This document shows positions 8,458 to 58,752 of a stretch of DNA of 64,000 nucleotides, piece by piece (the stretch's first letter is position 1; each line of letters opens with the position of its first letter). The stretch is from assembly GCA_049968515.1 (NCBI GenBank), contig JBMFQR010000003.1:6477-70476 (forward strand), written 5' to 3'. Under the pieces are notes generated by a model that was not told the DNA's origin, searched no databases, and saw only the letters and a list, made by a program, of their open reading frames with translations. Origin of the DNA: Brevinematia bacterium (lineage in GTDB: Bacteria > Spirochaetota > Brevinematia > Brevinematales > JAOACQ01). Position numbers and translations under genes: made by a program.

Positions 8458-9234
8458 TTACAAATAACTTACCAGAGTAATTACAAGGTCAAAACCAAAG
8501 AGGGCAAATATAGAACTTACGACTGCTTTTGTAGCTACCTGTGGAACCTGTGTAGATGTAACCGCCTGAAAGCCATAGTAGATAGATATAGCAGAAATAA
8601 ATATTCCAAAAAGCCCTCCTTTAAATAAGCTCATAAATATGTCAAAAAAGTTTATAGCATTAAGCACATATCTTGAAAACATCTCAAATGAGATATTGAA
8701 TAAAGCCCCAACAATCATTCCTCCAATAATACCAACTGCATTGAAGTATATAGTAAGAAGCAATATCGAGACAATCATCCCGGCAATTCTCGGAAAAACG
8801 ATATATCTTAATGTGTTAATACCGAGCATCTCAAGTGCATTGACCTCATCATTTACCATCATTGTACCAATTTCAACAGCAATGGCTGTACCAGAACGGC
8901 TTAAGACAATGAAGGAAGTAATAACCGGTCCAAGTTCTCGCACAATTACAATGTTGAGTAGCTTTCCTACCAAATCAAGGGCTCCAATCTGACTTAGCTG
9001 GGTGAAAAGCTGTAAGATAGTTATTGCTCCAAGTGAAAAAGAAACAATGGTGATGATTTTTAAGGCCATATTGCCAGTAAAGTAAATTTGTGATATTAAA
9101 ACTCTATTGATCCTCTTTTTCCCCGCGCTGCTTGAAAAATAAGCTATAAAGGAATAGAAGATTAAGGCAAGCACTCCACCATAATATTTTAGCTTTGTCT
9201 TAAACCACTTAGTAATTATTCCAAACACTTTCAT
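8458..9234 (-). CDS. mlaE: MlaE-type ABC transporter permease
   Basis: 258 aa, multi-TM. RELGPVITSFIVLSRSGTAIAVEIGTMMVNDEVNALEMLGIN matches the conserved MlaE/Ttg2B core. Confidence 0.85.
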   Translation of the reverse strand: MKVFGIITKWFKTKLKYYGGVLALIFYSFIAYFSSSAGKKRINRVLISQIYFTGNMALKIITIVSFSLGAITILQLFTQLSQIGALDLVGKLLNIVIVRELGPVITSFIVLSRSGTAIAVEIGTMMVNDEVNALEMLGINTLRYIVFPRIAGMIVSILLLTIYFNAVGIIGGMIVGALFNISFEMFSRYVLNAINFFDIFMSLFKGGLFGIFISAISIYYGFQAVTSTQVPQVATKAVVSSIFALFGFDLVITLVSYL

Positions 9235-9799
9235 TTCTTTTCACCTGTCTTATATACTCTGCGAGTCTTTTCCTTATCTTTGAGAGTATATTATCGACCT
9301 TTTTTATTGAGATTCCAAGTTCAGAAGCTATAGTCCTGTAGCTTTTACCTTCGAGAAACTTCTCTATAACACCCTGTTCAAGTTTTTCAAAACCCTTTAT
9401 AAAATCCATTATTCTATCGTTATAATCTTCTTCTATAGCTTTCAGTTCAGGACTTCTCAGCTCTATAAGCTCGTCAATTTTCTCATCTGAAGAGACTTCA
9501 TTAAGTTTGTATTTCCAGAAAGTATTGAGTGCATTTTTAATCTGATTTTCTATACACTTCTTTGAGTAAGTTGAAAATTTTATGCCAAGCCCCTCATTGA
9601 AGGTATGAATGGCTTTAAACAAACCAATCATACCCTCCTGTATTAAGTCTTCTCTCTCAAGGGAATTAAGTTTGTACTTTTTTATGATGTTCACCACCTT
9701 TTTTTTATACCTTTTATAAAATTCTCTTTCTGCTATCCTGTCATAAGGCAACAATGTAAAAAGCTCCTCATCCGTAAGAATTTCATAAAAGCTTCTCAA
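9209..9799 (-). CDS. Sigma-70 family RNA polymerase sigma factor, SigH-like
   Basis: 196 aa. TTG start at 9799 with a GGGAGA RBS (9810..9805). Region 2 is REDLIQEGMIGLFKAIHTFNE...FSTYSKKCIENQI. Region 4 HTH is SYRTIASELGISIKKVDNILSKIRKRL. Its 3' end overlaps the mlaE start by 26 nt. Confidence 0.8.
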   Translation of the reverse strand: MRSFYEILTDEELFTLLPYDRIAEREFYKRYKKKVVNIIKKYKLNSLEREDLIQEGMIGLFKAIHTFNEGLGIKFSTYSKKCIENQIKNALNTFWKYKLNEVSSDEKIDELIELRSPELKAIEEDYNDRIMDFIKGFEKLEQGVIEKFLEGKSYRTIASELGISIKKVDNILSKIRKRLAEYIRQVKRNESVWNNY

Positions 9800-22500: not shown

Positions 22501-22877
22501 ACATATTCTATAAGCTTTTTGCTTCTTTTTTAGCTCTATGTGATAAAAATATAGACAAAGGAAAAATTATATTTTTAGATCTTGAAGGAAAAAAGGAGGA
22601 ACAGAACATAACCTTGCTTGATAGAGATACAATTAATGAGCTTATTTCATACTATACAGAGGAAGAAAATTTTGATCTTCTTCCTCTCTCAATAATAAAT
22701 AAAACTGAAGATGGAAACGAAATTATTGAAATGGTAGAAGAGCAACTAAAAGAAGAACATAGCTTTTTTGACCTCTGTCCACCTTTAAAAACAAGAAGAG
22801 ACTTAAATAAATTTCTGCCTGAAAATGAAAGACTCACAAAAAGAATTAACTTGTTAAGAAAAATTATTTCCGCTTAA
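19539..22877 (+). CDS. recC: Exodeoxyribonuclease V gamma subunit (RecC)
   Basis: 1112 aa. The N-terminus MLKVTLSNNIGELL resembles the RecC N-terminus. PMRSIPFKIIYITGMNEGEFPS closely matches the conserved RecC block PMRSIPFKVVCLLGMNDG.YP. No Walker A motif. Confidence 0.8.
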   Translation: MLKVTLSNNIGELLNLLYEKIKEKRKSFFDYFDILVSSVNYKRTIEEHFLKKENVCMNLKFSFLEYFLAETFIKMLGLDENKVVILTLERNKVILNSLIFSILTDEDFERKYKEIFRMLLRDNFSENYKTNFLWNLSEKLTDLFREYEYHRYNEIIKNWKNSSFAYGLNPQKIELFQKEIFSKIFFSGKMLNSDEKKYFSLTGLFEEFINNKSNLSFDELKKKKTIYLFGFSQISKIHLEMLLSLENYFDFKIFMPAYAGTILEKNNLFDSFPYQLSIENEGEKLLPIDREFDIIDDLLSPVTGTLYLIRSLLKPENVSISWSKNEANSLLSGVKRLFMERRKSKFSLDDSIIIFSASSRMQEIEAIYNSILYNIQNDKNLKFDDILILVPDMKEYRNIIKDVFGRNPFLLHPNIKKEKSIPFHIYEKNAFKESLFNSLLSSFFNIIENNLSKFDLLSFLENPLLIKKFNIETDDLIFLRKWIESLNAFDEDNKFKFSTFSNLLKRLKLGFIMESNNLSYNGILPYADKFTDIKRLDAFVQIIEKLLFYRKEASGEKRLTEWIEIIKKFINDFVPAKFDDEISEENQIIHNFMRNLKLLEEIENLLKDKVYSFDKAKLHFLNIMTEILERNVSSLFNGVTVSNFLPMRSIPFKIIYITGMNEGEFPSEPDRSSLNLRNLKSFYNDIDRRHMDNFLFLEAIFAAEKKVYISYTGMNLEEDTELYPSSTLLAFINVISEFLLEEELKILKLPKSSLSEEYIKFDEKADVLTNIFYTPHRMISYLKSGMKLHGEDKKPVRHLEQKETSGKIKIKSLASFVINPIEETIRRKDGIYNNMDIELETKETRALELDSRCRAKIFNTAIPLFIKNYLLGQKRIFREIYEEVYKFYYYNGDIPDVEILNKIEKERITCETIEKNLTEVLTNINEDQFYEAIYIGYTSKEMENKKYYEIDIPVEGVIENIILKEDTLLYLRGKNKIDKTKIKFDFHYIFYKLFASFLALCDKNIDKGKIIFLDLEGKKEEQNITLLDRDTINELISYYTEEENFDLLPLSIINKTEDGNEIIEMVEEQLKEEHSFFDLCPPLKTRRDLNKFLPENERLTKRINLLRKIISA

Positions 22878-24203
22878 TTTTTCTTTTAGCTTTCTCAATC
22901 TGATATTATAGCTTATTTCTGGAATAAAGAATAAAATTATAATCAGCAAATAGAAGCCAGTGAGTTGAAATACTCCAAACTTATTTACTTCTACATTCAG
23001 CGGAAGAAATGAAAAAATTTCAACAATCTTATTGATTAAGTCAAAAACATGCTCTGTAATATTGCTAAAAACAAATCTACAAAATAATGGGCTTAAAAAG
23101 AAAATAATGAAGTTCAAGAATAAAATCACAAGAAATATAGAAAATAACGGTATCACTATAAGGTTAGAAATAAAGCTTACAAGACTCACACTTTTAAAAA
23201 CATAAAGCAACAGTGGAAATATTGCAATGTTTGCAGATAGAGTTATCGAAAAGGATTCACTAAATATCTCTGAAAGATTTGAAAAGAAGGTTTTTAGTGG
23301 TCTTGAAAAGAAGTAGATTCCGGCAAAAGAAAGATAGGAAAGCCAGAAGCTTAGCTTAAAAACTATTTCAGGAGAAATAATTACTGAAATGGCTGATGTA
23401 AAAAGTAGAATGTCAAGCATTTCTACATTCTGACCTTTCATCTTAAAGTAAAAGTAAATCAAAAAGATTATCCCGGCTCTCATTACCGAAGGATTAAGAC
23501 CTGAAAGTGCAATATAAAGCAGTATTGAGATTGCTATAATCGGATAGCAAAAGTGCCTTTTTAAAAATAACCCAGCCACAAAACCTACAAACATTGCAAT
23601 AATCCCGACATGAAGCCCTGAAACAGCAAGCAGGTGAAAAAGCCCAGTAAACCTGAAATTTTCCTTTGTTTCAAAATCAAGTTGAGATTTATTCCCCATT
23701 ATGAAGGCATAAATGAGGCTTTTAAATCTTTTATTCTCTATCTTTTCAATCTGGCCTGTAAAATACTCTCTAACCATGCTAAAAATCTTTAATAATATAA
23801 AACCATTCCTCTTTACCTTTATCTCTTTTACGAGTATAAGATTCTTGTTTCTCACAAACCCAGCCACACTTATTTGCTGAGATCTGTATAGATAAACCGG
23901 GCTTTCGAGTATCAACTTGAACGGATATGCCTCTACATAGTATGAAGAATCATCTTTTTTTTCCAGAAAACCTGTGACAATAAAATCGGCATGGATAAAA
24001 CCTGAATTTACAGAATTAATATTATTCCTACAATTAAAAAACGTAGCAAAAAAGGAAGTTAAAAGTAAGAAAAGATAGATATATTCCCTTTTTATAAGAA
24101 AAAAAGCAAGAAAGCAAATTAAAAGAGCTATTGCTATCCATAAAAACGAAGAATAAACAAGGAAGGAATTAACAAGAATTAATAAATAAAGCACCACCGG
24201 CAT
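22854..24203 (-). CDS. comEC: ComEC/Rec2-family DNA internalisation channel protein, short form without a metallo-beta-lactamase domain
   Basis: FRFTGLFHLLAVSGLHVGII is the ComEC competence-domain signature, and the protein is multi-TM. ATG at 24203 lies 1 nt after the upstream stop; the ORF-track start at 24278 overlaps the flippase gene. Confidence 0.8.
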   Translation of the reverse strand: MPVVLYLLILVNSFLVYSSFLWIAIALLICFLAFFLIKREYIYLFLLLTSFFATFFNCRNNINSVNSGFIHADFIVTGFLEKKDDSSYYVEAYPFKLILESPVYLYRSQQISVAGFVRNKNLILVKEIKVKRNGFILLKIFSMVREYFTGQIEKIENKRFKSLIYAFIMGNKSQLDFETKENFRFTGLFHLLAVSGLHVGIIAMFVGFVAGLFLKRHFCYPIIAISILLYIALSGLNPSVMRAGIIFLIYFYFKMKGQNVEMLDILLFTSAISVIISPEIVFKLSFWLSYLSFAGIYFFSRPLKTFFSNLSEIFSESFSITLSANIAIFPLLLYVFKSVSLVSFISNLIVIPLFSIFLVILFLNFIIFFLSPLFCRFVFSNITEHVFDLINKIVEIFSFLPLNVEVNKFGVFQLTGFYLLIIILFFIPEISYNIRLRKLKEKLSGNNFS

Positions 24204-24204
24204 T

Positions 24205-25473
24205 TTAATTATTCCATTTTTTTCTACTTGCCAGAAAGTGACTAATTCTTGCTTCAAAGAGTAAAACAACAAGCACAAATATTCCGGTTAAACCCACCAC
24301 ATTTGCTACATCCACCAGATTTTTGCAGAAAAAAACAATCAGAATAATCTGTATAATTATGGCAAGGAAAATAGAAATGTCATAAATCCTTTTATTCTTT
24401 ATTACATAATAATTAACAAAGTAAGTGATATAAGCATAAGGAATAAAAATGGTTGAATAATAAGGTAAGAGATTTTCAAAACCATAATACTGGCCTTTCA
24501 AAATGTAAGCAGAAATAAATGGTGAAAACAAAAAGAGGACAAGCACAAAACCTGCAAGAAAGATAGAAAGAAAAAGGACGGCAAGCCTATTTGCCCTTTT
24601 TAAATCGTCCGTCTTTGAGAGGATGGGCAGGAAAACAGTGGAGACAGATAAGGCAATGTAAAATGGGGCTTTTCCAATAACACTCACTGAAGAGTAAATG
24701 CCTGAAAGCTCGGGAAGTGAAAATCTTACAATTATTGAATCAATGTTTGAGAGAATTATAAACCCGCTTATAGCTGGAAAAGTTTTAAGAAAGGAGATGA
24801 AAAATTTCCTTACATCAAATTTGTAATCAATATCTTTCCTGATGGGTTTTTTATTTGACCTGCTGAATTCCAGAAGGAGAATAATGATAGTAAAAACATT
24901 GGCAATAATAAAACTTGCCAGCACACCAATATAGTCTTTCGTATAATAAACAATCAGAATACCAGATAGGAGTTTTATCAAGGTTGGAACTATCTGGAGA
25001 ATAGAATAAAAGAAAAATTTCTCCCTTGCCTGAACAAAAGAAACAAATGTATTTATAAAAAAGGGGAATGTTGTCATTATAATAAGATAATAAAAATCCA
25101 TATCAGTAGTTATATGCATTAACCTTTTTAACAATGGTAGAGAAACAAAAAATATAAAAATCAAAGCTAAAGCAGAAAGAGAAAGATAAAAGAAACAGCT
25201 TTTTATATACCCATAAACCAGTTGCTTCTCTTTTCCATGCAAGATTAAAGAAGCCTCTCTGGTAATAACAAACTGAAATGTGCTTGGAATAAGGCTTATA
25301 AACATTGACAGGATAATTAATGGATAAACTATGCCATACTTTTCAGGACCGAGCATTCTCTGCATTGCTATGTGAAAGATAAAATTTATACCACCAACAA
25401 AGAAATTGGAAAAAGAAACGAGCGAGGAGTCAAAAAACTCCCTTCTTAAAAAGATTTTCTTCAAAAAATCCAT
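24205..25473 (-). CDS. Wzx/MurJ-like oligosaccharide flippase family membrane protein
   Basis: 422 aa, about 12 TM. The N-terminal pattern (..NFIFHIAMQRMLGPEKYG..) is typical of polysaccharide-biosynthesis flippases. Start overlaps the uvrD stop by 1 nt. Confidence 0.65.
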   Translation of the reverse strand: MDFLKKIFLRREFFDSSLVSFSNFFVGGINFIFHIAMQRMLGPEKYGIVYPLIILSMFISLIPSTFQFVITREASLILHGKEKQLVYGYIKSCFFYLSLSALALIFIFFVSLPLLKRLMHITTDMDFYYLIIMTTFPFFINTFVSFVQAREKFFFYSILQIVPTLIKLLSGILIVYYTKDYIGVLASFIIANVFTIIILLLEFSRSNKKPIRKDIDYKFDVRKFFISFLKTFPAISGFIILSNIDSIIVRFSLPELSGIYSSVSVIGKAPFYIALSVSTVFLPILSKTDDLKRANRLAVLFLSIFLAGFVLVLFLFSPFISAYILKGQYYGFENLLPYYSTIFIPYAYITYFVNYYVIKNKRIYDISIFLAIIIQIILIVFFCKNLVDVANVVGLTGIFVLVVLLFEARISHFLASRKKWNN

Positions 25474-29242: not shown

Positions 29243-29677
29243 TCACAGGCGAACACAGGAGGTGAAGTTTTGTCCAATTTTGCTTAAGGCATATGTTTCT
29301 ATGGCTGTAACCTCAGCCATTTTTCTTATAAGTTCAGGATCTCTGGTACAACCAAGCCCTATATTGTGTGGAAAAATTACCGTGTCCACTGTCTTGCCAT
29401 TTCCATTCACTGCATCAACACCATAAAGCAAAGGGATTTTAAGCCTTGTAGATAAGGCTATGGATTGGTAACTATCTATCATTTTTGCCCATTCCTCCGG
29501 AGTGTTCGTAGCTGGCTTTGAGTCTCTCCCGCTTAATAAAGCACCAATACAATAATTTTTTATTTCAACAGGGCTTGCAAGATAATCCTTCTCCACCATT
29601 ATCATCTGTCCAATTTTTTCGTCGAGTGTCATCCTTGAAAGAAGTTCTTCAACTCTCCTTTCTACCTCTGGATTCAA
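29243..29677 (-). pseudogene. N-terminal remnant (144 aa) of a glycoside hydrolase family 3 beta-glucosidase
   Basis: LSRMTLDEKIGQM, GVDAVNG and FPHNIGLGCTRDPELI match the GH3 N-terminal domain. Full-length enzymes are several hundred residues longer. The ORF ends with only 258 nt of non-coding DNA before eno. Confidence 0.65.
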
Positions 29678-52470: not shown

Positions 52471-53467
52471 TGCGTTCTCCCGATTTATCATATAACCAGC
52501 AGGCTACAAAATGGGATTTTTCTATTTCGTTAAATGGGGGTTCTTCAACCTCACAGACTTTCATCTTCTTTTCACATCTTGTATGAAATGGACATCCTGA
52601 TGGGATACTTGAAGGTTCTGGAGGTATTCCGGGAATACTTTTAAGTTTTGAACCTTTCTGAAGAGAGGGAACAGACTCAAGCAAGCCTTTTGTGTAGGGA
52701 TGAAGTGGCTGTCTGAACAAATCCACAACATTAGCATATTCTACCTCTTTGCCCGCATAAATTATAAGCACATTCTGGGCTATCTGTGCAACAATACCAA
52801 GATTGTGAGTTATAAAGATCATGCTTAACCCATATTCTTCTTTAAGCCTCTGTATGAGCCCGAGAACCTGTGCCTGAATTGTCACGTCAAGTGAGGTTGT
52901 TGGTTCATCTGCAATCAAAAGCTCCGGTTTTAATATTATTGCCATTGCAATCATGGCACGCTGTCGCATCCCGCCTGATAGCTCATGAGGAAAAAGCTCA
53001 TACTGCTGAACAGGATGCTTGAATCCGACATGCTTAAGAATTTCGTAAACCATCTCCTTTGCAATTTTCATATCTGTATCAGTATGAAGCTTTATAACCT
53101 CAAGTATCTGATCTCCTATCTTTTCAACTGGATTAAAACTTGTCAATGGTTCCTGAAATATTATTGCTATTTCCTTTCCCCTTATATCATACATTCTTTT
53201 AATGTCAGTTGATAATAAATCCACATCCTTCCAGAATATTTTTCCATTGATTTCAAAGGGAGGAACCGGTAAAAGCCTCATTATGGAAAGAGCTGTTATA
53301 CTCTTTCCACACCCTGACTCTCCTACTATACATAGAGTTTCGTTTCTGAAGAGATTGAAAGAGAGATTTCTTACGATTGATAGATTTTTTTTATTTTCTT
53401 TAAGGTTTATTTTGAGATTTTCTACCTTGAGAAGAAATTTGTTCTCCATAGCATCCCTTATATTCAA
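52463..53467 (-). CDS. ABC peptide transporter ATP-binding protein (OppD/DppD-like)
   Basis: 334 aa. Motifs are GESGCGKS, LSGGMRQR, LLIADEPTTSLD and ITHNLG. The start may instead be the Met 6 codons downstream. Confidence 0.85.
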   Translation of the reverse strand: MNIRDAMENKFLLKVENLKINLKENKKNLSIVRNLSFNLFRNETLCIVGESGCGKSITALSIMRLLPVPPFEINGKIFWKDVDLLSTDIKRMYDIRGKEIAIIFQEPLTSFNPVEKIGDQILEVIKLHTDTDMKIAKEMVYEILKHVGFKHPVQQYELFPHELSGGMRQRAMIAMAIILKPELLIADEPTTSLDVTIQAQVLGLIQRLKEEYGLSMIFITHNLGIVAQIAQNVLIIYAGKEVEYANVVDLFRQPLHPYTKGLLESVPSLQKGSKLKSIPGIPPEPSSIPSGCPFHTRCEKKMKVCEVEEPPFNEIEKSHFVACWLYDKSGERNG

Positions 53468-53563
53468 TGGTTAGACTATCCTTATCAAACAGCCCGATTA
53501 TTAATATTATAAATTGCCGGTTAATTTTTTACAAATATCATCCCGAAATCCTCACTAAATATC

Positions 53564-55234
53564 TTACCATTCTCCTTCAAGGTAAAGTGAAAATCTATGC
53601 TCGTTTCTTGGCATAAGATTTTCAATCCTTCTTCTGTCATAACTATATCCTGCTCCAAGGGCAAATAAGCCAGCTATCTTTAACTCGGAAAACACTGCAT
53701 ATTCACTTCCAATTCCATAGTAAGAATTTATAGAGAAATCACCCCTGAAAAAATCCTCTTCTGTGTAATACAGGTCTGAATAGTAGCTTTTTGCCTTATA
53801 AAAAATTACCCTTCCTTTAAGTTTCAAAAAATCGGTCAAGTATAATCTGAGCCTTGATAAAAACATATTTCCCATTTCTTCTCTGTCAAATTCAAGAAGA
53901 TTCTGATATCTTAATTCTAAGATTATTCTGTCCCTCAAAATGCCAGCATCTATATATGCAAAGCTTCTTAAATTTCTTGTCCTTAATATATCGGAGTAGC
54001 GAGATTTAAGTTCAATAGAAAGTGTAGAAAATAATGGATTATCAATATCAATGCCAGCTCTGATTTCATACTTTTGGTAAGTCTTTTCGTTTGTGGAATG
54101 TATATATAAATTTAGATATAGCTGTATAAAAAAGCTTTCAAACTCATACCTTATTCCAGCAAAGAAACCAGCAACATCTTTTTTGTAATCAATTATCTTC
54201 TGTCCATTTATTGAATTAAAATTGCTTTCTGAATAATAAATTAGTGTTGAAATTCTTATTGTTTTAGAACCAGCCATAATACCCTGCAGTGTAGAAAATC
54301 CATCAGAGAAAGAGATTTCTCCATATGGATGAAAAGTCTCACCTTCTATGAAGTCATAAAAAAAGCTAAACTGATTGGTATAAGAGTGTATGTAGTTGTA
54401 AACCACACCAACTTCAAAATTTTCTTTGTATAGCAGAGAAGAGGTAAAATTGATAATTGAGTTGGTTTTTCTTATTATCTGCTCTGCAACCGAAAAAAAA
54501 GGAAAAAGATTATCATTTATCTTTAGATTAAAGGCAAATCCATTAAGATAGTCATAATTTTTATCATTATCAAAATCATCGGTCAAACTCTTATATGAAA
54601 CAATTCCCTTTCCCCTTTTATAGATCGGAGGCTGGTTGATTTTATCTATTGCAGAAATGCTGCTCGTCCCGAAAAGAAGACTTTGACCAAAGGATAGCTG
54701 ATAATGCCCGAAAATTGCCTTAATAAAATCATCCTCATATTTAATGTTATATCTTGTATTTGTAGCATATCCCTCATCAATTATGTTTGAGTAGCTTTTC
54801 ATTCCAAAATAAAGCTGTAGGTTTTTAACAATCATTTCAGACTGAAACGCCTGATAATTTGTGTTGGTATTATTAAGAGTTCTCTGCTTTGTTAGTATTC
54901 TGTAATTAAAATAAATCTCCTTATTTGTTATATACTTAATAGTTATGTATGGTAGTATGTCTTTTATCTCCGCACTTGTAAGGCCAAAATTTGTAAGCTC
55001 ATAGAGAGAGGTAAAATAGTTATTTCTTCTGTATTCTTCAAAAAGAATAATGTTGGTAGGAGTAAGATTTAATACTTCCTGTAAATATTCAATTCTGGTA
55101 GTGTTAATGTCCATTGGATTAACCAGAAGATCCTGATAAAAGATTATCTTTTCTTCATCAGTAATAGAAAAGAGCCTTGTAGAGATGAGAAGGATGAATA
55201 AGAAATAGAGTTTTTTATTCAATCCTTGAAACAT
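53564..55234 (-). CDS. Predicted outer-membrane beta-barrel protein with an N-terminal ComEA-like helix-hairpin-helix module
   Basis: ATG at 55234 with signal peptide MFQGLNKKLYFLFILLISTRLFS. The HhH-like segment is DINTTRIEYLQEVLNLTPTNIILFEEYRRNNYFTSLYELTNFGLTSAEIKDILPYITIK. The remaining ~450 aa form an alternating aromatic/polar pattern ending in ...SLYLEGEW. Confidence 0.65.
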   Translation of the reverse strand: MFQGLNKKLYFLFILLISTRLFSITDEEKIIFYQDLLVNPMDINTTRIEYLQEVLNLTPTNIILFEEYRRNNYFTSLYELTNFGLTSAEIKDILPYITIKYITNKEIYFNYRILTKQRTLNNTNTNYQAFQSEMIVKNLQLYFGMKSYSNIIDEGYATNTRYNIKYEDDFIKAIFGHYQLSFGQSLLFGTSSISAIDKINQPPIYKRGKGIVSYKSLTDDFDNDKNYDYLNGFAFNLKINDNLFPFFSVAEQIIRKTNSIINFTSSLLYKENFEVGVVYNYIHSYTNQFSFFYDFIEGETFHPYGEISFSDGFSTLQGIMAGSKTIRISTLIYYSESNFNSINGQKIIDYKKDVAGFFAGIRYEFESFFIQLYLNLYIHSTNEKTYQKYEIRAGIDIDNPLFSTLSIELKSRYSDILRTRNLRSFAYIDAGILRDRIILELRYQNLLEFDREEMGNMFLSRLRLYLTDFLKLKGRVIFYKAKSYYSDLYYTEEDFFRGDFSINSYYGIGSEYAVFSELKIAGLFALGAGYSYDRRRIENLMPRNEHRFSLYLEGEW

Positions 55235-55955
55235 AAATATCAATTCTTCTGTTGTAGGCCCTGCCTTCAGGAGTAGCATTAGACTCGAGAGGCTCATATT
55301 CACCACGTCCTTCTGCATACATCCTTACCGGATTTATGCCAAGTGCCTCAAAATACCTTACAACAGAAGAAGCTCTTGCTGTCGAAAGCTCCCAGTTTGT
55401 TGGGTAGATTTTTGCCATTTCTGAAGTTTTAGGAATGGGGGTGTTATCAGTATGTCCGACCACCTCAATTTTAACATCATCCCCCGTCTCTTTAAGTAAT
55501 AGCCCAACCTTTCTTAAAACCTCTCTACCTTCCTCAAAGTCAATCTCTGCACTTCCCGGCCTGAAGAACAAATCACTTGAGAGGCTTATCTTGTAACCTT
55601 TTTGTGTTTCCTGAATTCTTACCTTTTTTGCCTTAATTTCTGGAATAAAGAACTGAGCCGCCTTTTGCAAGGCTTTTGCAAGTTTTGCACCTATATCCTG
55701 TGAAGGAAGGCTTTCAACTGTATTGCCAAATTCAGCAAGAGGCCCCTTCGTAAGTGTGTTTCCACCTTCAAGTGCCCCGAGAGAACCTTTAAAAGCAGAG
55801 AGTATTAGCTGCATTTCGGTAGTTGCCGTGTTTTTACTGAGGGTTGCAATAAGCATTATGAAAAATGTTAAAAGAAGACTATTCATATCACCAAAGGTAG
55901 TCATCCATGCTGGTGTACTATAAACAATCTCCTCCCTTTTCTTTTTTCTTGGCAT
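55215..55955 (-). CDS. motB: Flagellar motor stator protein MotB (OmpA-like C-terminal domain)
   Basis: ATG at 55955 lies 1 nt after the motA stop. The TM segment carries the conserved Asp (PAWMTTFGDMNSLLLTFF). OmpA-like motifs are GHTDNTPI, NWELSTARA and NRRIDI. Confidence 0.85.
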   Translation of the reverse strand: MPRKKKREEIVYSTPAWMTTFGDMNSLLLTFFIMLIATLSKNTATTEMQLILSAFKGSLGALEGGNTLTKGPLAEFGNTVESLPSQDIGAKLAKALQKAAQFFIPEIKAKKVRIQETQKGYKISLSSDLFFRPGSAEIDFEEGREVLRKVGLLLKETGDDVKIEVVGHTDNTPIPKTSEMAKIYPTNWELSTARASSVVRYFEALGINPVRMYAEGRGEYEPLESNATPEGRAYNRRIDIYVSRIE

Positions 55956-55956
55956 T

Positions 55957-56733
55957 TTACCTTCCTGTCTCTTCAGGTTTTGGCCTCTGTGAAGGAGCAA
56001 GGAATGAATTCAATTTTTCTCTTAAGATTGTAGGATTATCCCCTGCCTGAATTGAAAGAACCCCTTCGAGAACAATCTCCTTTTGAATAACATCATATTG
56101 ATTCCAGAGATACAGCTTTGCGGCGGATGGCAAGAAGAAATGGTTTGCCATAATTGCACCGTAAAGGGTGGTAATCAAAGCAGTAGCCATATTCTTACCA
56201 ATACTTGACACATCCTGCATACTTCTTAACATAGCTATAAGACCAATCAATGTTCCTATCATTCCCCACGTAGGAGCAAAGTATCCCCAGTCATCAAGAA
56301 TCTTTTTTGCCTGGGCATGTCTCGCCTCCATCTGATCAAGTTCTGAATACATTATGTTTTTTACTATTTCGGGGTCAGTTCCATCAACCACAAGTTGTAA
56401 AGCTCTCTTAAGAAAAGGATCAGGCACCTCTGCAACATCATCCTCAAGAGAAAGAACTCCTTCTCTTCTTGATTTCTCTGCAAATGTTATCAGAGTCTCT
56501 ATTGTAGAAGATGGGTCAAAGGTTTTGTTCTGTAAAACTAGCCCGAATAAGGTCTTGAGCATTTTAATTCTTGCAAATGGAATACATATCATTAATGAGG
56601 AAAACGAACCACCAATGGTAATAAAAACCGATGGGAGATCAAAATAAATAGAGAGATCACCTGTGTTAAGCCAGGCTCCCCACATCCAGAGTATTGTACC
56701 TGCTATCATTCCTATTAATGTACCTTTTTCCAT
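55957..56733 (-). CDS. motA: Flagellar motor stator protein MotA
   Basis: 258 aa, 4 TM, a MotA/TolQ/ExbB channel family core (GMIGTLIGLI), located between flbD and motB. Confidence 0.9.
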   Translation of the reverse strand: MEKGTLIGMIAGTILWMWGAWLNTGDLSIYFDLPSVFITIGGSFSSLMICIPFARIKMLKTLFGLVLQNKTFDPSSTIETLITFAEKSRREGVLSLEDDVAEVPDPFLKRALQLVVDGTDPEIVKNIMYSELDQMEARHAQAKKILDDWGYFAPTWGMIGTLIGLIAMLRSMQDVSSIGKNMATALITTLYGAIMANHFFLPSAAKLYLWNQYDVIQKEIVLEGVLSIQAGDNPTILREKLNSFLAPSQRPKPEETGR

Positions 56734-56737
56734 ATGG

Positions 56738-56947
56738 CTATCTCTCCCTTGATTTTTGTAATGCTGATATAATGGATTGACTTAGGAAATCTATAAACAT
56801 AGATTTAATCTCTAAGGTTTTTTCTTTTACTACCATTCTCCTTCCAGAATTGAAGACAATTACTGTGTCTGGAGTCTCTTCTATTGTTTCAATTAAAAAA
56901 GGATTGACATTTACCTTAGTGTCATTTAATCTTGTAAGTTCTACCAT
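56738..56947 (-). CDS. flbD: Flagellar protein FlbD
   Basis: 69 aa. MVELTRLNDTKVNVNPFLIETIEETPDTVIVFNSGRRMVVKE matches the FlbD family, and it lies directly upstream of motAB as in spirochaetes and Firmicutes. Confidence 0.8.
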   Translation of the reverse strand: MVELTRLNDTKVNVNPFLIETIEETPDTVIVFNSGRRMVVKEKTLEIKSMFIDFLSQSIISALQKSRER

Positions 56948-57075
56948 AATTACCCTTATTAAGTTTTTCGGATATTTTGTAAATGAATTAAGTTTTTGAA
57001 ATTAAAAATCAACAGAGACGAGGTAATCAATGCTAAAACTTTATAAATATCCAAAAATATGCTATTATAAAATAA

Positions 57076-58752
<1,677 letters not shown>

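Follow-up and report, generated by a model that had tools for sequence, protein, structure and literature searches.

A predicted outer-membrane barrel with a ComEA-type module is encoded at the end of a flagellar hook/stator operon in Brevinematia-type spirochaetes

We analyzed a stretch of 64,000 nucleotides from a Brevinematia bacterium (phylum Spirochaetota; assembly GCA_049968515.1, contig JBMFQR010000003.1, positions 6,477 to 70,476), hereafter called the window. Directly after flbD, motA and motB, the window carries a gene whose product is predicted to combine a large outer-membrane barrel with a signal peptide and a diverged tandem helix-hairpin-helix (HhH) module of the ComEA type. We call it the HhH-barrel gene, or X in operon formulas. 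In nearly all loci of its clade, this gene forms the 3′ end of a flagellar hook/stator operon. We therefore favour, tentatively and with somewhat less than an even chance of being right, a reading in which a member of the HhH-barrel family was recruited to the periplasmic-flagellum regulon as an envelope accessory. The molecular picture, an outer-membrane barrel carrying a periplasmic ComEA-type module, is well supported; the biological process is not. What is new here is the flagellar-operon context of a family that already has a name and is uncharacterised.

Genes were called from open reading frames (ORFs) and from Pfam and NCBIfam scans of the window proteins (Table 1). An earlier reading of this DNA, made from the sequence alone (the sequence-only reading), had described gaps of 4 and 1 nucleotides between flbD, motA and motB, an HhH-barrel start codon at position 55234, 20 nucleotides inside motB, and the lack of a fliL gene after motB. 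The ORF coordinates confirmed this spacing. No fliL was found after motB, and two ATP-binding cassette (ABC) ATPase genes come next downstream of the HhH-barrel gene instead. In addition to the Pfam matches, the window motB product matched the NCBIfam MotB model PRK06667 (E 3.6e-67), while the NCBIfam MotA/MotP/PomA models scored under their cut-offs for the motA product. The HhH-barrel protein has the same sequence as the NCBI protein ACP5QT_01295, annotated as a hypothetical protein in a metagenome-assembled genome.

The ATG at 55234 is the real start of the gene, because eight orthologues with 44-63% identity share its N-terminus and the first methionine (M1) is invariant. This ATG is embedded in the conserved C-terminal codons of MotB, which read ...D-I-Y-V-S-R-I-E and then the stop. 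The same 20-nucleotide overlap was found on four other contigs (L001-L004), making five loci with the window, and in a more distant relative (L009) the start of the HhH-barrel gene overlaps motB by 4 nucleotides. The tight coupling to flbD-motA-motB that the sequence-only reading had proposed thus holds beyond the window, and the four genes are probably co-transcribed.

Members of the window's clade come from genomes assigned to Brevinematales, Brevinematia or ‘uncultured Spirochaetota’, and the clade is restricted to Brevinematia-type spirochaetes. The sequence-only reading had raised the question of whether orthologues stay next to motB in related genomes. In 12 of the 13 clade loci, among them relatives with as little as 24-30% identity, the HhH-barrel gene closes a flagellar hook/stator operon at its 3′ end, and the linkage reaches beyond the stator genes to fliK-flgD-flgE-flbD operons. 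Three arrangements were observed. The first, flbD-motA-motB-X, is that of the window, L001-L004 and L009. The second, fliK-flgD-flgE-flbD-motA-motB-X, occurs at L010 and L013, and the third, fliK-flgD-flgE-flbD-X, which is without motAB, at L005, L011, L015 and L017. X is always on the same strand as the gene upstream of it, at distances of -20, -14, -4, 34, 73 or 122 nucleotides. At L013, this upstream gene encodes a response regulator (L013:5292-6014; Response_reg and Trans_reg_C domains), which stands between motB and X and overlaps the start of X by 14 nucleotides.

The genes after X differ between arrangements. One set encodes ABC transporters together with a histidine kinase, another an ankyrin-repeat protein, and a third two unknown proteins, with rpsB and tsf behind them. 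These two proteins (about 298 and 360-409 amino acids; L010:8050-10183 and L011:2622-4700) had no Pfam match, and between the divergent loci L010 and L011 they are 57% and 31% identical. They might belong to one unit with the barrel gene.

Upstream of flbD we noted a candidate promoter resembling the sigma-28 type. Both of its blocks are kept in the window and in four orthologous flbD upstream regions (L001-L004), where the common pattern is AAAAACTYAA, 15 nucleotides, TCCGAAAAA, about 20 nucleotides ahead of the start codon. The element resembles the sigma-28 consensus, TAAA-N15-GCCGATAA. The octamer TCCGAAAA by itself showed no enrichment in the window (3 found, 2.8 expected). Because of this, the candidate is carried solely by its conservation across the orthologous regions, and we treat it as a lead, not a result. 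A sigma-70 consensus scan gave nothing above chance, and promoter and terminator consensus scans of positions 53300-57300 gave nothing above shuffle expectation. A hairpin inside motB (55393-55368) was not significant.

The N-terminal residues of the HhH-barrel protein (about 1-24) appear to be a Sec signal peptide, judged from sequence features and with an approximate cleavage site. In the AlphaFold2 model this region is a low-confidence N-terminal helix. The segment that follows had been read as a ComEA-type tandem HhH module with degenerate hairpins, and our profile searches bear this out. The window copy itself has no Pfam or NCBIfam match, even at E<=1. Among its relatives, the Pfam model HHH_3, which describes ComEA-type HhH modules, matched three of the eight close orthologues (best E 5e-5) and, at the aligned position, scored above the Pfam gathering score in the distant relatives P0013 (41 bits), P0020 (34.9), P0041 (45.4) and P0038 (55.9). 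A family-wide profile of the module matched the solved ComEA structures 8dss (2.6e-17), 8dfk (2.1e-14) and 2duy (3.3e-10), and also the HhH modules of EEPD1, GspK, Tex and PsbU. On this evidence, we assign the N-terminal segment to the tandem HhH modules of the ComEA type, in a diverged form.

The modelled module consists of four helices (residues 48-55, 59-71, 77-83 and 87-93) with a predicted local distance difference test score (pLDDT) of 85-90. Its hairpins are NLT (residues 56-58) and GLT (84-86). The statement of the sequence-only reading that both GIG turns are replaced is therefore right, with one exception: the first glycine of the second hairpin, G84, is retained and invariant. P40, R69, T81 and N82 are likewise invariant among 18 sequences, and the module is the best-conserved part of the protein, with a mean column identity of 69% against 64% for the whole.

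HhH modules throughout the family are neutral to acidic, and their hairpins are degenerate in every clade, including the clade linked to comEC that is described below. Taken as a proxy for DNA binding, net charge and isoelectric point were uninformative: they did not separate the Brevinematia clade from the comEC-linked or other clades, and acidic values were also obtained for bona fide multi-HhH proteins. Since the degeneracy is family-wide, it argues by itself neither for nor against a role with DNA. When the profile of the module from close orthologues was compared with the Protein Data Bank (PDB), it also returned leucine-rich-repeat proteins (a Roco ‘Rab family protein’ and an internalin; summed E 7e-11). 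This identity was rejected because every single stretch had an i-Evalue >49, so that the match was a sum of weak repeats. The Brevinematia relatives of 667-697 amino acids (P0010, encoded at L005:6001-8076, P0011, P0013-P0016 and P0019) have an additional HhH-like module of about 90 residues, more degenerate than the conserved one and upstream of it, and in P0010, P0011, P0014, P0016 and P0019 it weakly matched the hidden Markov model (HMM) of the module (E 1e-2 to 1e-4).

Structure prediction supported the second half of the architecture, an outer-membrane beta-barrel with an aromatic C-terminus, as the sequence-only reading had suggested from residue patterns. AlphaFold2 models built on 9 sequences (pLDDT 70.7) and on 18 sequences (pLDDT 84.1, predicted template-modelling score 0.69) both contain 24 antiparallel strands, an even number, between residues 107 and 555. 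The long loops of the model (182-229, 336-353 and 482-506) each come after an odd-numbered strand, as would be the case with the HhH module and the C-terminus both on the periplasmic side. Foldseek searches of the PDB returned only outer-membrane barrels. The best were the FimD/PapC ushers (E 5e-11 to 9e-10, TMq 0.46-0.49, identity 8-11%; E 9e-10 and TMq 0.47 for the model built on 18 sequences), and OprD/Occ channels, MOMP and AlgE were also returned. For the barrel, we found no solved structure related by sequence; only the HhH part has such relatives. The protein ends in ...RFSLYLEGEW, and the last residue is W, F, L, Y or I in 20 of 20 close relatives. These results predict that residues 107-555 form an outer-membrane barrel with periplasmic termini.

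The most conserved segment of the alignment is the end of strand 5 together with loop L3, with the pattern GHYQLSFGQxLLFG...PIYKKxRG...D.D.D...DYLxG. G176, G183, L186, L187, G189, P203, D220 and G232 are invariant in 18 sequences. Such conservation is unusual for a surface loop, which suggests that L3 folds into the lumen, where it may act as a plug or gate. The segment includes an acidic DxDxD...D stretch, which reads TDDFDNDKNYD in the window and DPDGDGKRD or DSDGDGKPD in relatives; it may resemble calcium-binding loops of the DxDxDG type.

The fusion of an HhH module to a barrel also occurs in other genomes. When 1.84 billion representatives were searched with a profile (E<=1e-3), 174 relatives were recovered, most of them 600-700 amino acids long, and a search started from the relative P0079 returned at least 811 proteins. 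A second profile search, from alignment A3, returned only the nine known orthologues. Other members are found in Bacteroidales and in Solitalea canadensis (WP_014680365.1, a ‘DNA uptake protein’ in UniRef), and the large family to which they belong, although uncharacterised, has already been named by the annotation pipeline PGAP and by UniProt. When the alignment of the window's clade (A3) was compared with that of the Bacteroidota family (A7) using hhalign, the two matched with 100% probability (E 1.4e-45) over 505 aligned columns, spanning the HhH module, the L3 motif and the whole barrel. Plain BLASTP also detected the relatives P0021 (3.5e-15) and P0038 (2.6e-6). In the L3 region, the window sequence GHYQLSFGQSLLFG...IVSYKS aligns with GDFQLQxGQGL...PYTS of Bacteroidota, and the shared motif is G-x-Y/F-x-L-x-x-G-Q-x-L...P-Y-(K/T)-S.

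These comparisons bear on the possibility that the barrel or HhH resemblance is an artefact, with an alternating sequence pattern and short motif matches produced by chance in AT-rich DNA, and that the protein is not a membrane protein. The failure of the window sequence to match any Pfam or NCBIfam model, and the low pLDDT of the model built on nine sequences, would fit such an explanation. However, the orthologues at 44-63% identity are conserved over their full length, the profile search found 174 relatives, the hhalign match has a probability of 100% over 505 columns, the second model reached a pLDDT of 84.1, and HHH_3 exceeds its gathering score in relatives. We thus consider an artefact extremely improbable.

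Using the L3 motif as a pattern, we scanned metagenomes for the family, and the scan returned 80 loci, 77 of them distinct. None of these wider-family loci contains a flagellar gene, and thus the switch of context is specific to the Brevinematia clade. The wider family has a different neighbourhood. A small barrel of about 270 amino acids, resembling FadL and UPF0164, is encoded directly upstream in 45 of 57 loci, and comEC (with Competence and DUF4131 domains) follows directly downstream in 33 of the 63 loci with enough flanking sequence, mostly with gaps of -4 to +6 nucleotides. On Bacteroidota-type contigs, the small barrel (about 270 amino acids), the HhH-barrel (about 680 amino acids) and comEC form a three-gene unit on one strand (for instance L025:7100-12019), which was also seen at L038, L052, L064 and about 30 other loci among L019-L098. 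This operon is apparently undescribed, and our search of the full-text literature found no description of the HhH-barrel protein or of its comEC operon.

Linkage to comEC extends through one large and diverse clade of a rough neighbour-joining tree, while other clades keep the small-barrel partner only. The comEC adjacency is absent from the Cyclobacteriaceae-like and P0038-like clades, and in Cyclobacteriaceae the HhH-barrel gene lies among envelope-biogenesis genes (lgt and an Omp85-family gene). Neither partner accompanies the gene in Brevinematia: an HMM built from 48 small-barrel proteins found no small barrel in the window or at L001-L017, and no comEC was found next to the Brevinematia copies. 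At L007 (4849-5949) and L020 (1224-2543), the small upstream barrel has a C-terminal HHH_3 domain of its own (70-78 bits), so that both outer-membrane partners bear a ComEA-type module there. A similar layout is known from Riemerella anatipestifer, where a transposon screen found the HhH-domain protein RA0C_RS02645 (HhH at residues 236-301) to be indispensable if natural transformation is to occur (PMC8459023). None of the newly identified essential genes of that screen resembles known transformation machinery (PMC8459023), and the route of DNA across the outer membrane in Riemerella is a speculative model. RA0C_RS02645 resembles the neighbour at L007 and L020 in layout.

The main rival to our reading follows from this neighbourhood. 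It proposes that the protein still does what the family probably does elsewhere, serving a comEC-linked uptake pathway that works without pili as its conduit or docking site in the outer membrane, and is merely co-expressed with motility. The usher-sized barrel would pass DNA or another polymer, and the ComEA-type module would hand it to ComEC, encoded in the window itself (Table 1). Several results fit: the full-length homology to the Bacteroidota family, comEC directly downstream in about half of the family loci with enough flank, the homology of the module to solved ComEA DNA-binding domains, its likeness in the Brevinematia and comEC-linked clades, best fold matches to 24-strand usher pores that translocate polymers, and the essential HhH-domain protein of a transformable member of the Bacteroidota (PMC8459023). 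The comEC adjacency is nevertheless limited to one large clade of the rough tree, and neither comEC nor the small-barrel partner lies near any Brevinematia copy. DNA binding is also no more than putative even in the comEC-linked members, whose hairpins, as in the whole family, are without the GhG (Gly-hydrophobic-Gly) turns and whose modules are neutral to acidic. In addition, we know of no report of natural competence in spirochaetes, which speaks against uptake. The sequence-only reading had offered DNA uptake as an alternative on the strength of the comEC gene and a SigH-like sigma factor in the window. These two genes, 30-44 kb away, do not support it; the support comes from the Bacteroidota-type loci. 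We regard the uptake explanation as a serious contender, although somewhat unlikely.

Another explanation is that the protein is a general outer-membrane porin or envelope tether without a specific link to flagella or DNA. Its gene would have come to lie last in the operon through an accident of history and would stay because read-through transcription gives it adequate expression. Foldseek matched ordinary porins and substrate channels (OprD/Occ, MOMP, AlgE), and the module profile matched GspK and PsbU, in both of which the HhH is a protein-binding domain. The Cyclobacteriaceae copies among envelope-biogenesis genes also point in this direction. Moreover, the barrel gene is always the terminal cistron, with varying genes downstream, and it is at such positions that hitch-hiking genes tend to gather. 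An accident is harder to reconcile with a position that all but one of the clade loci share, even at about 25% identity and with changing downstream neighbours, or with the conserved coding overlap with motB. The strong conservation of the surface loops and of the HhH module is also unusual for a generic porin. We thus find this explanation quite unlikely.

Our preferred reading, recruitment to the periplasmic-flagellum regulon, takes into account that X holds its position across the clade while the surrounding genes change, that its coding overlap with motB is conserved, and that the switch of context is clade-specific. We hypothesize that a Sec signal peptide would direct the export of the protein, that the 24-strand barrel would insert in the outer membrane and leave both termini periplasmic, and that the ComEA-type module would hang below it on a short linker. 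Three long and unusually conserved surface-side loops (L3, L7 and L11) would probably cover the lumen or fold into it. The gene would have left the usual neighbourhood of the family in Brevinematia-type spirochaetes, with a small FadL-like barrel upstream and, in one clade, comEC downstream. It would now be expressed with the flagellar hook/stator operon, of which it is the last cistron, probably from the sigma-28-like promoter before flbD. In our model this co-expression would be functional: the barrel would anchor the protein to the outer membrane over the region of motor and hook, and the HhH module would be an adaptor for a partner in the periplasm, either peptidoglycan or a component of the stator or hook, and not a free DNA receptor. 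Here, we infer both the flagellar role and the binding partner.

Several observations weigh against this proposal. To our knowledge, no outer-membrane component of the spirochaetal periplasmic flagellum is known, and a full-text literature search found no outer-membrane protein of a spirochaete flagellar operon or periplasmic flagellum. Pfam, NCBIfam and Foldseek showed no sequence or fold relation of the protein to flagellar proteins. The only functional hint within the family, the comEC coupling in a large Bacteroidota clade, points elsewhere, and since the Brevinematia and comEC-linked modules are alike in net charge and hairpin degeneracy, there is no sequence sign of a change of function. 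The locus L012 (P0019), at a contig edge, has no flbD in the 235 nucleotides available upstream of X. The three gene arrangements may stem from only two or three rearrangements, so that the position could have been retained passively. Finally, a strict partnership with the stator is unlikely, as motAB moved away without the barrel gene in the loci of the fliK-flgD-flgE-flbD-X type.

Table 1 Features of the window discussed in the text (positions are those of the 64,000-nucleotide stretch).
Feature	Position	Strand	Description or evidence
flbD	56738..56947	minus	69 aa; Pfam FlbD, E 3.6e-19
motA	55957..56733	minus	258 aa; Pfam MotA_ExbB, E 9.5e-29
motB	55215..55955	minus	246 aa; Pfam MotB_plug, 4.7e-10, and OmpA, 1.3e-18
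HhH-barrel gene (X)	53564..55234	minus	556 aa + stop
Predicted signal peptide, ~residues 1-24	55163..55234	minus	MFQGLNKKLYFLFILLISTRLFS: basic n-region, hydrophobic core, no Cys, hence not a lipoprotein
ComEA-type tandem HhH module, residues 36-100	54935..55129	minus	HHH_3 in relatives, module profile, model
Predicted 24-strand outer-membrane beta-barrel, residues 107-555	53570..54916	minus	AlphaFold2 strand map and Foldseek
Most conserved segment (end of strand 5 and loop L3), residues 176-232	54539..54709	minus	alignment
Candidate sigma-28-like promoter	56965..56997	minus	AAAAACTTAA, 15 nt, TCCGAAAA; conservation in orthologous upstream regions
comEC-like gene	22854..24278	minus	474 aa; PF03772, Competence domain only; ~30 kb from the operon
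Small sigma-70-family factor	9209..9799	minus	196 aa; regions 2 and 4 only; ~44 kb from the operon

Elsewhere in the window, the comEC-like gene adjoins a gene resembling polysaccharide flippases, with no HhH protein beside it; its layout, with the Competence domain only, has been reported as typical of spirochaetes (PMC6299819). The small sigma-70-family factor is presumably the gene that the sequence-only reading had called SigH-like, and no link between it and the operon was found. A 144-amino-acid ORF at 29243-29677 (minus strand) has a match to the Glyco_hydro_3 N-terminal domain that is confined to its first third, and is possibly a gene fragment or a mis-split gene.

Bacteroidota can be naturally transformable, and the HhH-barrel family offers a concrete gene to knock out for the question of how they take up DNA. 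A broader idea, which we hold to be doubtful, is that in Bacteroidota the HhH-barrel and the small FadL-like barrel form one half, that of the outer membrane, of a comEC uptake machine independent of pili, and that this module was rewired into the flagellar regulon in Brevinematia. If true, this would fill a gap for Bacteroidota, namely the path by which DNA crosses their outer membrane. In Brevinematia, it would mean either the first outer-membrane component of the periplasmic flagellar apparatus, or motility and DNA uptake hard-wired together. A predicted outer-membrane barrel encoded class-wide in the hook/stator operon, and here translationally coupled to motB, is an unexpected and testable flagellar candidate. 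If neither idea holds, one conserved envelope module would still be wired into two unrelated inner-membrane machines in different phyla.

Finally, we compared the protein with known systems. It shares with the Bacteroidota HhH-barrel family the signal peptide, the N-terminal tandem HhH, the large C-terminal barrel and a hydrophobic or aromatic C-terminus. In contrast, the window protein is about 120 amino acids shorter, with several loop inserts missing, and its gene lies in a spirochaete flagellar operon instead of between a small FadL-like barrel and comEC. With ComEA (PF12836 HHH_3; TIGR01259 and TIGR00426) it has in common a tandem HhH of about 65 residues, the four-helix layout and the ...PYITIK end. 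However, ComEA is a small protein, soluble or membrane-anchored, with a C-terminal HhH, whereas the module of the window protein is N-terminal to a 450-amino-acid barrel. The hairpins of ComEA are of the GhG type, which contacts the DNA backbone, and those of the window module are NLT and GLT. The NCBIfam ComEA models scored at most 49 bits in relatives, against a cut-off of 152, and did not match the window protein.

The FimD/PapC chaperone-usher pores are the best fold match, with the same 24 strands and a pore wide enough in principle for a polymer. Unlike them, the window protein matches no usher Pfam domain; it lacks the plug domain that ushers have between strands 6 and 7, as well as their periplasmic domains at the N- and C-terminus. 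We tried and rejected an assignment to the usher family, given the missing domains, the identity of 8-11% and a TM-score <0.5; the two are alike in barrel size without belonging to one family. Among flagellar systems, the disk and ring proteins of Vibrio and Campylobacter/Helicobacter (FlgO, FlgP, FlgT, PflA and PflB) are outer-membrane-associated motor accessories of external flagella, and FliL, MotK and MotE are stator partners, with fliL normally following motB in spirochaete operons. Like these accessories, the HhH-barrel protein is encoded with flagellar genes and is predicted to be located in the envelope.

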